Part shown: positions 7,429-12,092 of the stretch, piece after piece
How positions within the stretch are numbered: position 1 is the stretch's first letter
Layout of the letters: the number at the start of each line of letters is the position of its first letter
Assembly: GCA_009783055.1 (NCBI GenBank)
Contig: WRHW01000075.1
Location: 1-12,092 of the forward strand
Length of the DNA: 12,092 nucleotides
Direction: 5' to 3'
Source of the DNA: Holophagaceae bacterium
GTDB taxonomy: Bacteria; Acidobacteriota; Holophagae; Holophagales; Holophagaceae
Translations under genes and position numbers: made by a program
The notes under the pieces: model-generated
What the model saw: only the letters and a program-made list of their open reading frames with translations
Told to the model about the DNA's origin: nothing
Databases searched by the model: none

Positions 7429-8229
7429 TCAATTGGAGTCTATGGCCACGGCAACCTTTAGATTGAAAACGATGATGGTATTTTCCTTGATTAATACCGG
7501 GATAATGATGTCTGGAAAGCCTTGACTAGCCCCTGTGGGGGCAGTCGTTGTATGTTCGTCTGTTGTGATCGATTTGCTACCATTTGTAAGCGTCAGGTTT
7601 GTCAATTTTAGAGACATAGATGTGCCTCTGGTTTGGTTGCCTGGCACTACGTTTGAAACTACGCCTCTGACGGTAGCTCCCCGTTTTGCGACGGTTTTAC
7701 CACTCGCTACAATGTCTTCATCTAGGACTGCAGAAAACCCCTCGCCTGCCCTAACTCGATTTGTTGAAATGTCAGAAGTGGCTCGTACGAAAATCGAAGT
7801 TCCCTGTGCCAATGTAATGCTGGGGGGTGCAGGTGTGTTAATGTTTTGACTATCGCCAGATGACTTCTTTTCTGTAGTGGTAGCCTTGACATCAGACGGA
7901 TTAATTGGTGCCCCAGTAGCTTGGGTACCCTGTCCCTCATTAACGACTTTTTTGCCGGTTGATTTCCAGGCTAGGTAACCTCCGATTATGCAAACAGCCA
8001 AGATTGAGGCAATAGCGATACCTATCTTTTTGTTTGTTGATTTCTTGGTTGTTTCTATGGGTGAGACTGAAGCCACAAGTGCAGTAGTGCTATAGCCTAC
8101 GCTGGAGCTATCATCACTGGGGTTAGCTGGCATTCGAATTATTGTGTCGCAGTATTCGCAGGTAATCTTTTTATTGTCGTCACATACGAATTGTTCTCCG
8201 CCACATTTTGGACATTTCTCAGTACTCAC
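7429..8229 (-). CDS. Zinc-ribbon / single-TM / extracytoplasmic beta-domain protein (possible NfeD-like partner of the SPFH protein)
   Basis: The N-terminal segment 'CPKCGG-x12-CEYCD' is a CxxC...CxxC ribbon. One TM helix follows ('IGIAIASILAVCIIGGYLAW'), then an S/T/P-rich linker and a ~120-aa beta-rich C-terminal domain. GTG start at 8227-8229 sits 9 nt after SD 'GGAGG' and 22 nt downstream of the previous gene. Confidence 0.6.
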   Translation of the reverse strand: MSTEKCPKCGGEQFVCDDNKKITCEYCDTIIRMPANPSDDSSSVGYSTTALVASVSPIETTKKSTNKKIGIAIASILAVCIIGGYLAWKSTGKKVVNEGQGTQATGAPINPSDVKATTTEKKSSGDSQNINTPAPPSITLAQGTSIFVRATSDISTNRVRAGEGFSAVLDEDIVASGKTVAKRGATVRGVVSNVVPGNQTRGTSMSLKLTNLTLTNGSKSITTDEHTTTAPTGASQGFPDIIIPVLIKENTIIVFNLKVAVAIDSN

Positions 8230-8251
8230 AGCCTATTCCTCCAATACAAAA

Positions 8252-8953
8252 TTATTGTGGTCGCCTCAGTAGGCGGCACTTATTATTCCTTTCAGTAAGT
8301 AATAAAGAAAGTTCGTCTGCTATTTTTCCGATATTTTCCCCATTTGAGGTCACAGCCTGCTTTAGGGAGGCAAATAACTTTTCCATTGCCGTTTCTAGGT
8401 CGGCTAAATCAGCGATACTTATTGGGTCGCTATAACGGACATCCTCCGATAGTTTTTCAACTTTATTTTTTAACACACCATCTGAAATGCGCGGTACCAG
8501 CGATTTCAAATCGACATAGAGGTGATTGATAAACCTTGATTCTGTTACGCTTTTTGTATCTATCTGTTCAATTATCTCGCGCGACCAATCTGCAAAAATA
8601 ATAGCTATCGTGGCATAGGCGAGGACAAGTATGCATGGGATAACTGCAACCCACGCGGGAAGATTAACCACAAGAGAAATAAGCATTATTGTTGCACAAA
8701 TGGCCAATTCAGCTAATAGACAGCGAAAGGCAATAATTACTATTGGGACACCCAAGAAGGCGCGTTTTAGGTTATCGGCTTTGCGAAAAGCAATGGTGTC
8801 AGCGATTAATTGAGCAATTATTGTTAGGACTGAAAAGCCGTAGGCGACCCAAAATGCCCCATTTTTGCGAAATGGTATTACAAAAACCAGTATATTGAAA
8901 ACAATAAAGATAATGGCTAATACTAAACTTCGGCGATTTCTGTATTTTATCAT
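8252..8953 (-). CDS. Integral membrane protein (4 predicted TM helices) with C-terminal cytoplasmic helical domain
   Basis: The 233-aa ORF has four hydrophobic segments in its first ~125 aa and a charged helical tail. Its ATG overlaps the stop of the upstream SPFH gene (ATGA at 8950-8953), which indicates translational coupling. It is preceded by SD 'AAGAAGGG'. Confidence 0.6.
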   Translation of the reverse strand: MIKYRNRRSLVLAIIFIVFNILVFVIPFRKNGAFWVAYGFSVLTIIAQLIADTIAFRKADNLKRAFLGVPIVIIAFRCLLAELAICATIMLISLVVNLPAWVAVIPCILVLAYATIAIIFADWSREIIEQIDTKSVTESRFINHLYVDLKSLVPRISDGVLKNKVEKLSEDVRYSDPISIADLADLETAMEKLFASLKQAVTSNGENIGKIADELSLLLTERNNKCRLLRRPQ

Positions 8954-10824
8954 CCTGTCCCTTCTTTCCGAGTTCCACAGTTATCGCAGAAATTTCCGAC
9001 AATGTTTTTGTTGCCGCATTTACAGTCCCAAGAGGTGGCTTTTTGTGACCCGCAATTTGAGCAGAAATTTTTTGCATTGCCCATTTGCCCGCAGGCACAA
9101 TTCCATGTTTCTGGTGGTGTTGGCTTTTTTCCACCACAATCGGAGCAAAAATTACCCTGAATCCCTTTTTGCCCACAAGCACAGTCCCATAAACCGCCTG
9201 ACAAATTATCGGAGGGAGAAATCGCAGGATTTACTGCGTTCCCAACCATTTTGCCAATATCCGAGGAAGCACCCATCATTGGAGAGAGTGCATCCTTTGT
9301 AAGTCCTATCACTCCGCCAAGGGCACCCAATGTTATTCCAAGGCCTGCGACATCTCCGATGGCTGATCCCATTCCACCGCCGCCACTACCTTCTTTAACG
9401 ATGCCTCCCTTCATGGCTTCCAATCCGATTTGACGTTGCGTTTCCTGGCTGTACGAATATTCTTTCATTTTCATTTCGCGGGCTTCGGCTTCTGCCTGCA
9501 TTAAGTGAGCATCTGCGTCTGCCTGTTTTTCTAAGCGCGTTTTATCTGCTGTTCCACCGGCAACTATTCTTGTAGTATCTGCATTCATCTGAGCTTCGAT
9601 AAGTTTTACCTGTGCTTGAGCGCGCGCAACCTCTGCCTCGGCTTCCAACTCCGCTTTTCTTACCTCCATTGCACGGACTTTTTCAAACTGGGCGGTGTGC
9701 GCTTCTAAAATCTTTTGTAGATTCCCTTTATTATCTGTTGTATCTATGGCCTCAAGATAAAACTCAGATAGGGTCAGGCCATATTCTTCCAGGTCTTTAT
9801 TGAGTCGTATTTGTAACGCACCCGACAATTCATCAAGGTTTTCGTCAATTTCTAGTATGTTGATCTGATTTTCTTTAATGGTTTTTGCCAAATGGGTTTT
9901 TACCCGCGTCATTACCATGGAACGGAAGTAACCCTTAAACTCTTTTGCCCCCTCCCCGTCTTGACGAAGGTCAGACCATATCAACTTATTTTCGGTACCC
10001 ACCAGCTTTAATATCAGTTTCCGTGAATCGCAAACACGCATGTTATATGCGCCACGTGCCCCAATATCCAATGGGAGGCGAGTTGTTGGTTCTAAAAACC
10101 TTACCCTGCTATCAGTGCCCCACTTTATTCCCATTTGCGTTGTGAGGTTTACAAAGTATATTTCTGCATGAAACATCCCCGATGGTTCCACCAAGGAATT
10201 GTAGACATCATTGATCAAAGGGACGCTTTGCGTTTCTAATGTATGTCGCCCAGCGGGAAATAATTCCCTTGCCTGGCCATTGCGAAAGAAAACTGCCTCC
10301 TGGGATTCGTGGACAATTAGCTGTGAACCAATGTTAAAGTCTTCAACCGGATGCTTCCATACAAAAGTATCGTTTTGGCCTTCATACTTAATTACGCTTG
10401 CAAGCCCCGTTTTGGCAATCTTTTTTAGTTGCACTTCTTTTAATACATCAATATTGCCCAATCCGCAGACTGGGCAGGTGTATTCTAATACGTCATCTTT
10501 TACGCTCAGGCTACAGCTACATTGAGGGCAGGCAAAGCTAAGCATGCGAGCAAACATTTGCCCCGTTGTAGTGAGTTTCTTTTTACAAACTGGACACTTT
10601 GCTTTGTCACCTTGACGCTGGTCATAGGCCACCGATTCCCCGCATTCAGAACATTTTAGCGTTACAAGGCTTGCAGAATCGATCACTATGTCACGCTCAC
10701 ATGCGGGGCATTTGAATTTTTTCTTGGCTAAAAAATTAATACCAAATATGCCCTTGGGTGCTTCTACATGCGTATTGCAATGGGGACAATTGAGTGCAAA
10801 TTTTGGTGTTACAAAATCAAGCAT
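8950..10824 (-). CDS. SPFH / Band_7_1 (YdjI-like flotillin-related) protein fused to an N-terminal triple zinc-ribbon array and C-terminal triple tandem zinc ribbons
   Basis: The core 'VIKYEGQNDTFVWKHPVEDFNIGSQLIVHESQEAVFFRNGQARELFPAGRHTLETQSVPL' matches the Band_7_1 / SPFH-like family signature (B. subtilis YdjI type). The N-terminus has three CxxC-x15-25-CxxC ribbons. An Ala/Glu/Gln-rich coiled coil (~res 385-470) is followed by a Gly-rich GxxxG segment. The C-terminus has three 'W[DN]C[AK]CG-x6-NFCxxCG' repeats. SD 'GAAGG' lies upstream of the ATG at 10822-10824. Confidence 0.8.
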   Translation of the reverse strand: MLDFVTPKFALNCPHCNTHVEAPKGIFGINFLAKKKFKCPACERDIVIDSASLVTLKCSECGESVAYDQRQGDKAKCPVCKKKLTTTGQMFARMLSFACPQCSCSLSVKDDVLEYTCPVCGLGNIDVLKEVQLKKIAKTGLASVIKYEGQNDTFVWKHPVEDFNIGSQLIVHESQEAVFFRNGQARELFPAGRHTLETQSVPLINDVYNSLVEPSGMFHAEIYFVNLTTQMGIKWGTDSRVRFLEPTTRLPLDIGARGAYNMRVCDSRKLILKLVGTENKLIWSDLRQDGEGAKEFKGYFRSMVMTRVKTHLAKTIKENQINILEIDENLDELSGALQIRLNKDLEEYGLTLSEFYLEAIDTTDNKGNLQKILEAHTAQFEKVRAMEVRKAELEAEAEVARAQAQVKLIEAQMNADTTRIVAGGTADKTRLEKQADADAHLMQAEAEAREMKMKEYSYSQETQRQIGLEAMKGGIVKEGSGGGGMGSAIGDVAGLGITLGALGGVIGLTKDALSPMMGASSDIGKMVGNAVNPAISPSDNLSGGLWDCACGQKGIQGNFCSDCGGKKPTPPETWNCACGQMGNAKNFCSNCGSQKATSWDCKCGNKNIVGNFCDNCGTRKEGTG

Positions 10825-11066: not shown

Positions 11067-12062
11067 TCACTTCTTTGTCATCTTCTCCCACATGCTTCTT
11101 CCTTCCGTTTCATCAATTTGCCTTACCGACATCCCTGGCACTATTTCTAGTCTTTCATTTTTTTTCTTGCCACGGTCGTTTACGACTTTTTCCTTTTGGA
11201 CATTGGCTATTTTGCCTGTAGAGGTAGATGCCGCAACGGTTTCGATAACGATGTAGGCAATTACAGTTTCTTCAACGGCCACGGTCTCACCAGTTATGGG
11301 ATGAACGATGGGATCGTCCTCTCTGATGACCATGTAACGCTGGCCTTTTATAACTCCATCATTGCTACCCATATCAATCATTGCCATATTGTCCTTAACC
11401 TGTACCACTGTGGCTTCTGTGCCAATTCCCATTTTTCTCACAACCCTGGCAATAGCCTCGCGCGTCAATTTTGAGTACAGAGCAGTGTTTACGTAGCGAT
11501 CTCTGACAGGATCCCATGAACTTACAGTGGAGCTTTCCACCCCTTCTGCTTGCTCAATAAAGGCAATTTTGCCATTTTTTACGTCAAGCATTTTTATGTT
11601 TATTAGAACCGATGTTTTTCTGGTCAACGAGCTAGCCGTGTTTCTCGATGAATTTTTGCTCAAGGCATTAGAAAGAAGCGAAGTCGAAGTTTCGCGAGCT
11701 TCTTCGCTAACTTCCAGCACTTTGCCCATCACTACATAATCAACGCCGGCTATTTTGCCCATCTCCGCGGCGACATCATCCGTAATGCCTGCCATACCTT
11801 GCGCTACCTGCTCTATCACCTTATTCATCTGTGCTTGTTCAACGAGCTCATATTTTTTACTTTTCAACAGTTCGTAGCTTAGTATGTCCACAAGGCCCCT
11901 GCTAAAGGCACTATCGCTGACCTGCGAGTTGTTTTCGAAGGCTACCACGCCAATGCGTTCTTTGGGGCGCTCCTGGGCGACCGCGGAAGGCGAAAAGCCA
12001 AAAACGGCGAGTGATAGTACTGCCAGTTTTAGACTGAGCAAGTGTCTGAGGTTGAGATTCAT
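11067..12062 (-). CDS. CsgG-family-like periplasmic protein (curli-assembly/transport-component-like N-domain), SPI-type signal peptide
   Basis: The segment 'KERIGVVAFENNS...GLVDILSYELLKSKKYELVEQAQMNKVIEQ...GVDYVVMGKV' follows the CsgG-family pattern (xxIAVlpFen...L...L.ksgrfxvveR..l..vl.Eq...GAdyvv.G.v). The signal peptide 'MNLNLRHLLSLKLAVLSLAVFGFSPSAVA|QE' has no lipobox Cys. I chose the second in-frame ATG (12060-12062) because it is preceded by purine-rich 'AAAGGAAAGAAG'. The ORF-track start at 12077 has no SD. The window ends 15 nt further on. Confidence 0.6.
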   Translation of the reverse strand: MNLNLRHLLSLKLAVLSLAVFGFSPSAVAQERPKERIGVVAFENNSQVSDSAFSRGLVDILSYELLKSKKYELVEQAQMNKVIEQVAQGMAGITDDVAAEMGKIAGVDYVVMGKVLEVSEEARETSTSLLSNALSKNSSRNTASSLTRKTSVLINIKMLDVKNGKIAFIEQAEGVESSTVSSWDPVRDRYVNTALYSKLTREAIARVVRKMGIGTEATVVQVKDNMAMIDMGSNDGVIKGQRYMVIREDDPIVHPITGETVAVEETVIAYIVIETVAASTSTGKIANVQKEKVVNDRGKKKNERLEIVPGMSVRQIDETEGRSMWEKMTKK

Positions 12063-12092
12063 CTTCTTTCCTTTCATGGAATTAGGTGGTTA

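Follow-up and report, generated by a model that had tools for sequence, protein, structure and literature searches.

The window analyzed here spans a whole contig, 12,092 bp long, from the metagenome-assembled genome (MAG) of a Holophagaceae bacterium (locus tags FWG02_10035 and FWG02_10040), in which three co-directional open reading frames (ORFs) on the minus strand, g1, g2 and g3, fill positions 7429-10824 and encode an SPFH protein with zinc ribbons and two membrane proteins (Table 1). We find that the ORF coordinates and the sequence agree with the tight packing described in an earlier note on this DNA: the genes have nearly no spacing, the g1 stop TGA overlaps the g2 start ATG, and the 22-nt gap (8251-8230) between g3 and the g2 TAA, which ends at 8252, holds a GGAGG.

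Table 1. Genes and features of the cassette, in window coordinates.
Feature	Position	Strand	Description or basis
g1	8950..10824	-	624 aa, soluble SPFH protein; GenBank MCL1894550.1
g1 N-terminal ribbon array, residues 13-120	10465..10788	-	Family alignment A1
g1 SPFH domain, Band_7_1 type, residues 161-364	9733..10344	-	Pfam PF13421
g1 Gly-rich hydrophobic segment GDVAGLGITLGALGGVIGLTKDA, ~residues 487-512	9289..9366	-	Hydropathy, A1
g1 C-terminal ribbons, three of the W[DN]CxCG-x7-FCxxCG type, residues 546-617	8974..9189	-	A1
ATGA, g1 stop TGA overlapping g2 start ATG	8950..8953	-	Sequence; translational coupling
g2	8252..8953	-	233 aa, inner-membrane protein with four transmembrane helices
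GGAGG ribosome-binding site	8238..8242	-	8 nt upstream of g3 GTG start
g3	7429..8229	-	266 aa, bitopic protein; GTG start
g3 tag ribbon KCPKCGGEQFVCDDNKKITCEYC, residues 5-30	8140..8217	-	phmmer, regular expression, tag hidden Markov model
g3 transmembrane helix, ~residues 66-87	7969..8034	-	Hydropathy peak 69-87; preceded by KKSTNKK
g3 beta-rich extracytoplasmic domain, ~residues 125-260	7450..7857	-	phmmer; no Pfam model

The family assignment of g1, on which the earlier note had staked its reading beforehand, falls clearly to Band_7_1 rather than to canonical Band_7: Pfam PF13421 matches at 107 bits over profile positions 9-197 of 211 (E 1.4e-30, cut-off 24), vs 34.6 bits for PF01145. The protein has no N-terminal transmembrane (TM) helix by hydropathy and is built, in order, of three N-terminal CxxC ribbons (Cys 13/16/39/42, 58/61/77/80 and 99/102/117/120), the Band_7_1 domain, an EA-rich coil, a Gly-rich hydrophobic segment and three C-terminal WDCxCG..FCxxCG ribbons (Cys 548/550/560/563, 576/578/588/591 and 601/603/613/616). 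These six four-Cys ribbons and a single one in g3 make up the seven previously counted across the two proteins. Cys 99, 102, 117 and 120 are invariant in family alignment A1, where ribbons 1 and 2 keep seven of their eight Cys at a conservation of at least 90%, Cys 61 being the exception; the C-terminal ribbons number from 2 to 7 copies among relatives. The Gly-rich segment is conserved across A1, contains the single hydrophobic peak of the protein (488-506) and could serve as a membrane contact or a cap. More than 6,500 homologues of g1 were found, the best 120 of which are full-length (~575-720 aa), share its architecture at 44-57% identity (BLASTP) and come, where named, mostly from Clostridia, Oscillospiraceae or Ruminococcaceae MAGs; identity reaches 60% among the relatives in A1. 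A phmmer search of g1 against PDB sequences gives no match.

Hydropathy and an AlphaFold2 model agree with the earlier description of g2 as a protein with four TM helices. The helices are N-terminal (residues ~8-125, N-in/C-in), and the model, with a predicted local distance difference test (pLDDT) score of 71.5, places helices at 2-25, 32-56, 61-92 and 101-155, giving four TM helices and a helical bundle. We find in addition a cytoplasmic helical domain (126-233), absent from that description, whose invariant residues in family alignment A2 are S175, D176, S179, E187 and E221-R222-N223. There is no Pfam match to g2 at E<=0.1 and no NCBIfam family, and a word index returns only 8 homologues; judged from its sequence, g2 is a separate four-TM family that lacks a Pfam model, and the window protein scores 339 bits on the hidden Markov model (HMM) of that family. 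Scanning a viral collection with the g2 alignment yielded no confirmed match, TM-protein patterns being too degenerate.

The layout proposed for g3, a zinc ribbon, a TM helix and an extracytoplasmic beta domain, is borne out by hydropathy and domain searches, with the ribbon Cys at 6/9/23/26 and a beta-rich C-terminal domain. Since KKSTNKK precedes the TM helix, the positive-inside rule predicts a cytoplasmic ribbon and a periplasmic C-terminal domain. An AlphaFold2 model made without an alignment is unusable (mean pLDDT 41.5), and Pfam offers only a weak match to Zn_Ribbon_TF (E 0.012). In an exhaustive phmmer search, residues ~105-235 match 1,032 representative proteins at E<=1e-3, and these relatives usually open with a signal peptide, lipobox or TM anchor (73 and 25 of 149), so that the domain is a common extracytoplasmic module. 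Its architectures include Zn_Ribbon_1-TM-PASTA/NPCBM-domain-Gly-zipper_YMGG and Ser/Thr kinase-TM-domain. An N-terminal CxxC..CxxC ribbon occurs in 7 of the 149 best matches and is of a different type where checked.

Relatives of the cassette were collected from the contigs of g1 and g2 homologues and by scanning genomes with g1 alone (at least 3 loci), the viral collection (7 loci) and metagenomes with an alignment (at least 590 confirmed stretches, 80 loci kept), the metagenome scan being far more productive than the genome scan; in total, 107 loci carry g1 and represent 47 lineages at 90% g1 identity. In the first round, each g1-like gene has as its next ORF downstream a member of the g2 family (HMM E 1e-46 to 1e-120). 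Over the full set, g2 nearly always comes next after g1, and the spacing is mostly -11 to +6 nt. Nineteen dereplicated lineages have 4 kb or more of flank on each side; in 17 of them g2 lies downstream on the same strand, the exceptions being of the type of loci L016 and L017. One locus, L009, is a decayed copy (1696-2658), in which an intact g2 homologue (58% identical to the window g2) stands behind a 60-aa remnant of a g1 C-terminus, with a VapB/PIN toxin-antitoxin pair adjacent, and g1 or g2 genes are frameshifted or split in L050, L085, L086 and L106.

A phmmer search with g3 against all ORFs of the first loci returns matches solely at the N-termini of neighbours; one such match pairs the g3 ribbon KCPKCGGEQFVCDDNKKITCEYC with KCKMCGGSLKIAEKSSTITCEYC in a TIR protein. 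This shared ribbon, hereafter the tag, has the consensus CxxCGG-x14-CEYC, which we searched as a regular expression ending in C[ED]YC and which g3 matches. The expression places a tag at residues ~5-8 of a neighbouring gene in 17/17 first loci with an intact g1 and finds none in the decayed L009; the genes recovered include third genes missed by the public gene caller (L005-L008) and, in L016 and L017 (Clostridiales RUG581 and Ruminococcaceae P7), a 272-aa protein that follows the distant g1-like genes. An HMM built from 40 distinct tags of TIR partners only, with g3 excluded, gives g3 20.6 bits, whereas 149 relatives of the g3 C-terminal domain reach at most 1.5 bits, though several carry other ribbons, and the six ribbons of g1 itself give no score; the g3 ribbon is therefore of the system-specific type. 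By its predicted composition, g3 is chimeric, combining the tag of the system, one TM helix and a common extracytoplasmic module. At L005:7320-7895, L006:5361-5540, L007:2728-3261 and L008:856-1776 public calls give an opposite-strand ORF, and the plus-strand ORF that starts with a tag (306 aa and multi-TM in L008) is more plausible, so that automated annotation missed the third component there.

Most tagged neighbours, which we call clients, are TIR proteins. Their core of ~375 aa comprises, in order, the tag ribbon, TPR, a conserved linker, TIR_2 (Pfam E 1e-10 to 1e-13) and TPR. The motif WV[KRV]NEW is kept in 85 of 88 distinct cores, and its Glu aligns with the Glu of the plant L7 TIR (WCLMEL) and of Brucella TcpB (WPAREL), which we take to be catalytic; by this alignment the catalytic-type Glu of a WxxxE motif, as in TIR NADase effectors, is conserved. 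Beyond the core, C-termini vary widely (RCC1/WD40, Sel1, BspA-type LRR, a ribosomal L7/L12 C-terminal domain, single or multiple TM helices), for total lengths of 467 to 1,829 aa. Many clients are wholly cytoplasmic by hydropathy, and BspA-type LRR, RCC1 and Sel1 repeats sit in such soluble proteins. Paralogues within a locus have cores that are 51-92% identical and tails that are mostly 25-51% identical or unalignable and differ in length, with a few related pairs at 61-70% over most of the tail, and in the L023 cluster of human-gut contigs, with g1 at least 90% identical (e.g., L026, L027, L029, L031, L032, L039, L045, L052, L054 and L057), the adjacent TIR clients span 557-1,113 aa and vary strongly in tail sequence, a pattern that indicates strain-level turnover of client C-termini. 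In the termite-gut client L001:3289-5757 (also in L002-L004), the L7/L12 C-terminal domain (Pfam E 2e-25, residues 380-445) is followed by three TM helices; the usual role of this domain is to bind translational GTPases at the ribosome, which makes the fusion an odd one, and it could be a decoy or sensor module.

Other clients carry the tag without TIR: ribbon-RCC1 proteins (458-663 aa), whose genes frequently sit between g1 and g2, ribbon-TPR proteins (417-464 aa), the 306-aa multi-TM protein and the ribbon-TM-ectodomain protein of L016 and L017. The TIR-core HMM has no match anywhere in the window, which is thus a non-TIR variant, like the clients of L016/L017, L101, L103 and L106. A TIR-RCC1 gene neighbours even the closest relative of the window g1 (P0002, 57%), which suggests that g3 is a replacement specific to its lineage.

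Linkage of these components is tight. Fourteen of the 19 lineages carry one to three TIR-core genes, all on the strand of g1; a tagged partner lies within 4.5 kb in 17/19 by HMM and in 19/19 when the regular expression is included; and a large TIR_2-plus-repeat protein adjoins the g1-g2 pair in six independent contexts. A reverse scan of the viral collection with the TIR-core alignment retrieves only two contigs, both of which also carry g1. The arrangement of g1-g2 with a ribbon-tagged neighbour is far beyond chance and recurs in dozens of independent lineages, and the three window genes are a real operon and, as had been proposed, one module. The expectation that all three would be conserved as neighbours holds for g1, g2 and the ribbon-tagged slot, and fails for g3 as a whole protein, which is an orphan in a slot filled elsewhere mostly by TIR proteins.

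Short g1 forms of 373-465 aa, near the size of Bacillus YdjI, consist of Band_7_1 and C-terminal ribbons with no N-terminal array and are found in L099-L105 (IMG/VR contigs) and in L106 (plasmid pNP21, NZ_CP146965.1); a g2-family gene is next in most of these loci, and ribbon-tagged clients occur in several. Because the short forms keep g2 and tagged clients, the g2/tag partnership is older than the N-terminal ribbon array. A correlation between that array and client type was considered and rejected, as short g1 forms without the array still pair with g2 and tagged clients, including TIR (L100).

Several relatives lie among defense or mobile genes. In L107 (GCA_947625735.1) a helix-turn-helix gene, a TIR client, a 244-aa gene, g1 and g2 adjoin a JetD_C/DUF6063 (Wadjet-like) cluster and type I HsdR; L108 and L109 adjoin a Mob_Pre relaxase and a primase-like DUF3987 protein; the flanks of L101 hold an SbcC-like ATPase, PLD, a ResIII helicase and AAA_13; the short-g1 module of L103 is part of a prophage region that also has terminase, portal and Abi_2 genes; and that of L106, on pNP21 of the isolate Butyrivibrio fibrisolvens D1, lies between a restriction-modification S subunit, a recombinase and YoeB/RelB. 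Searching phage GenBank entries by tblastn gives only weak partial matches, to unannotated fecal 'Bacteriophage sp.' fragments. PADLOC-DB v2 has no significant match for g1 or g3, nothing significant for g2 (a weak CARF_TM match, E 0.006) and, for TIR and non-TIR partners, chance-level matches only (E>=4e-5, no matched stretch), and the searchable literature holds no paper linking SPFH, Band-7 or flotillin proteins with TIR, defense islands or Thoeris.

The genes just upstream of g1 in the relatives are variable. A ~154-162-aa accessory gene occupies this position in 17 loci (L026:5615-6079, L108:8416-8886, L103:9705-10193 and 14 others) and has an RNKIIH (Rx4H) motif; its Pfam matches to HEPN are sub-threshold (E 0.0023 and 0.021), so that this assignment is kept as a hint only, and the gene may be an optional fourth, RNase-like component. 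A 241-aa family, a DUF2971 family (322 aa) and an RHH protein are found there as well, and one Clostridia lineage has an R2K-type ATP-grasp gene (R2K_3/R2K_2; L011:49-816, minus strand) just upstream of the module, from a family often tied to conflict systems.

Pfam searches identify the flanks of the cassette in the window, all on the minus strand, as envelope genes. Upstream, across a 242-nt spacer from g1, lies a gene for a 336-aa probable lipoprotein (11067-12077) with a CsgG (E 1.4e-12) and LpoB-like (E 4e-6) N-terminus and an extra C-terminal domain. Directly downstream are the outer-membrane (OM) barrel and lipoprotein that the earlier note had recognized: a 192-aa OMP_b-brl protein (6792-7370), 58 nt past g3 with no terminator-like site between and possibly co-transcribed with the cassette, and an 813-aa lipoprotein (4249-6690) with Listeria-Bacteroides (Flg_new) repeats and weak similarity to the Treponema denticola TDE0471 neuraminidase model. 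Unrelated neighbours, likewise on the minus strand, encode a small TM2-domain membrane protein (3614-3901), a DUF2911 protein with a C-terminal helical extension (1699-2646) and a small radical-SAM protein (1073-1726). An Rfam scan of the window finds no RNA element.

We favor, at a probability of roughly 0.55, the reading that the g1/g2/g3 cassette is a TIR-less member of a widespread, unnamed scaffold-plus-client, membrane-based conflict (anti-phage) system. TIR enzymes generally need oligomerization for activity, and because of this need, the fast-diversifying tails and the defense and mobile contexts, the family is most likely a membrane-scaffolded conflict system. By analogy with other SPFH proteins, g1 would oligomerize at the inner membrane, as a large ring or cage on its cytoplasmic side, most likely anchored by g2 in the manner of YdjH for YdjI or NfeD for stomatin/flotillin; the N-terminal ribbon tag presumably docks the variable client on this g1/g2 platform, and the scaffold would concentrate or restrain TIR effectors until the variable module of the client, or membrane damage, triggers them. 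Since the window copy has no TIR client and its tagged g3 projects a periplasmic beta domain, it probably links the scaffold to the periplasm or envelope, either in a sensing or anchoring variant or as a derivative that has been disarmed. A passing remark in the earlier note, that the module might be phage-defense-like, has become the better lead, with a mechanism that we infer. The further claim that the family is a new immune class, in which an SPFH ring anchored by a four-TM protein docks tagged TIR receptors with diversifying sensor tails in a modular slot, the window being a periplasm-reaching diderm variant, is one we hold tentatively, at somewhat less than even odds.

Like Thoeris ThsB/ThsA, TIR-NLR/Avs-like systems, Rst_2TM_1TM_TIR and SPARTA, the relatives join a TIR_2 domain with a catalytic-type Glu to variable repeat 'sensor' regions and are found in defense islands, prophages and plasmids, some with small TM proteins; unlike them, they have no ThsA, STAND nucleoside triphosphatase (NTPase), Argonaute or SAVED partner and match no PADLOC model, the SPFH scaffold and the zinc-ribbon tag are found in the g1/g2 family alone, and the window copy lacks TIR. 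For NTP-dependent conflict systems, in which, as here, a short shared N-terminal module couples diverse effectors or sensors to a core, Kaur et al. (2020; PMC7159879) proposed that Band7-like domains form superstructures; those systems are built on vWA-MoxR or STAND NTPases (PMC7159879), whereas the present family has no conserved NTPase and its adaptor is a four-Cys ribbon.

Several observations weigh against this reading. The window holds no TIR, other enzymatic effector or defense-island neighbour and lies between envelope genes; taken whole, g3 is an orphan protein, and its ribbon match is short, at ~26 residues and 20.6 bits. No component has a PADLOC model, which makes the defense role one of guilt by association, and the presence of N-terminal ribbons in g1 does not track client type. 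Some TIR clients have TM helices and probable extracellular repeats, which would also fit a surface-sensing, non-immune role. Tag docking and scaffold formation, finally, are predictions.

The earlier note had regarded the genes as a variant of the PspA-associated YdjGHI-type cassette; here g1 would recruit a PspA/Vipp1 encoded elsewhere to damaged membrane, with g2 and g3 in the anchoring roles of YdjH and YdjG. The likeness is real for g1. YdjI is a soluble protein with a band-7 domain, a region of low complexity and a C-terminal ribbon that needs its two membrane partners YdjG and YdjH for membrane binding (PMC8581546, PMC11237479), and g1, as a soluble Band_7_1 protein with a low-complexity region and C-terminal ribbons, falls within the definition of YdjI. 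Both cassettes comprise three structural components, the SPFH protein being co-encoded with membrane proteins, and YdjG, a membrane protein (PMC8581546, PMC9239133), starts with a TFIIB-type ribbon (MIISYKCPNC, per the cloning primer; PMC8581546), much as g3 combines an N-terminal TFIIB-like ribbon, the source of its weak Zn_Ribbon_TF match, with a TM helix. The remaining comparisons go the other way. YdjH is defined as a membrane protein that carries a TPM-phosphatase domain (PMC11237479), whereas g2 is a four-TM helical protein that lacks it; YdjG has two ribbons, a YpeB/NTF2-like domain and a TM helix (PMC11237479), whereas g3 has one ribbon, no Pfam domain and, in place of the YpeB/NTF2-like domain, a periplasmic beta domain that gives way to TIR in relatives; g1 has three extra N-terminal ribbons, and its family a varying number of C-terminal ones. 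The gene order differs from pspA-ydjG-H-I, and the recurrent partners are TIR proteins in mobile and defense contexts rather than Psp components. As the earlier note had stated for PspA, a Pfam search detects no PspA, TPM or NfeD domain in any window ORF; PspA_IM30 is absent at the 12 relatives' places with recorded Pfam hits, and pspA is absent from the operon within the 12-kb contig, the only part of the genome at hand. On this comparison of domains and gene order the cassette is not a member of the PspA-YdjGHI system, despite the shared logic, and we consider a PspA-linked stress role unlikely.

A housekeeping SPFH-partner pair, serving microdomains or membrane-protein quality control, with the ribbon neighbours as substrates or unrelated genes, is slightly less probable still. 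SPFH genes typically share operons with a membrane partner (PMC11237479), and the translational coupling of g1 to g2 resembles stomatin/flotillin-NfeD, QmcA-YbbJ and HflK/C-FtsH, for which ring or cage scaffolding is likewise expected; the envelope genes of the window would fit such a role. However, g1 is a Band_7_1 protein without a TM helix of its own, and its partner has neither an NfeD OB-fold nor a protease; neither g2 nor g3 matches NfeD in Pfam, so that the earlier note was right to set the locus apart from the flotillin-NfeD pairs. The clients here are defined by a zinc-ribbon tag, pairing with TIR is unreported for SPFH-partner operons, and the tight reciprocal linkage with TIR proteins of divergent tails, the decayed copies and the spread of the family over a plasmid, IMG/VR viral contigs (the one with terminase, portal and Abi_2 among them) and mobilizable elements argue against housekeeping. 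We give lower odds to the view that only g1-g2 is a module, with g3 an unrelated envelope protein that belongs with the OM barrel and lipoprotein genes. The absence of full-length homologues of g3, the occurrence of its C-terminal domain in more than 1,000 envelope proteins, the few domain relatives with a ribbon of another type (7/149) and the closeness of the OM barrel gene would all fit, but g3 occupies the exact slot of tagged clients, carries the system-specific ribbon (20.6 vs <=1.5 bits) and follows g2 by 22 nt with its own ribosome-binding site, and an analogous ribbon-TM-ectodomain client directly follows g1 in L016 and L017. Least probable, in our estimate, is a surface or ligand-sensing platform, an analogue of raft-clustered Toll-like receptors in which the variable repeats of the clients would detect ligands, TIR-made nucleotides would signal and g3 would be a periplasmic sensor: several TIR clients do have a TM helix followed by long, probably extracellular tails, and the g3 domain is extracytoplasmic and found on Ser/Thr kinase receptors, but many clients are wholly cytoplasmic, and the defense-island, prophage and plasmid contexts and strain-level tail turnover fit immunity better.

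SPFH/flotillin-type scaffolds are universal, and their bacterial clients are mostly unknown. By naming a client class, through the shared ribbon tag, and a four-TM partner, comparative genomics makes the question of what SPFH rings organize testable. At the level of the family, a candidate SPFH-scaffolded TIR system is surprising and open to test, with the window as an atypical, TIR-less form known from its genes alone. If the TIR-bearing relatives are immune systems, they would constitute a membrane-scaffolded, modular TIR defense, abundant in human-gut, rumen and termite-gut Clostridia and missing from PADLOC-DB v2, and a parallel to eukaryotic raft-associated TIR signaling. The TIR-less, periplasm-facing variant of this Holophagaceae bacterium suggests that the client slot is re-usable, and it offers a natural comparison of scaffold with effector function.

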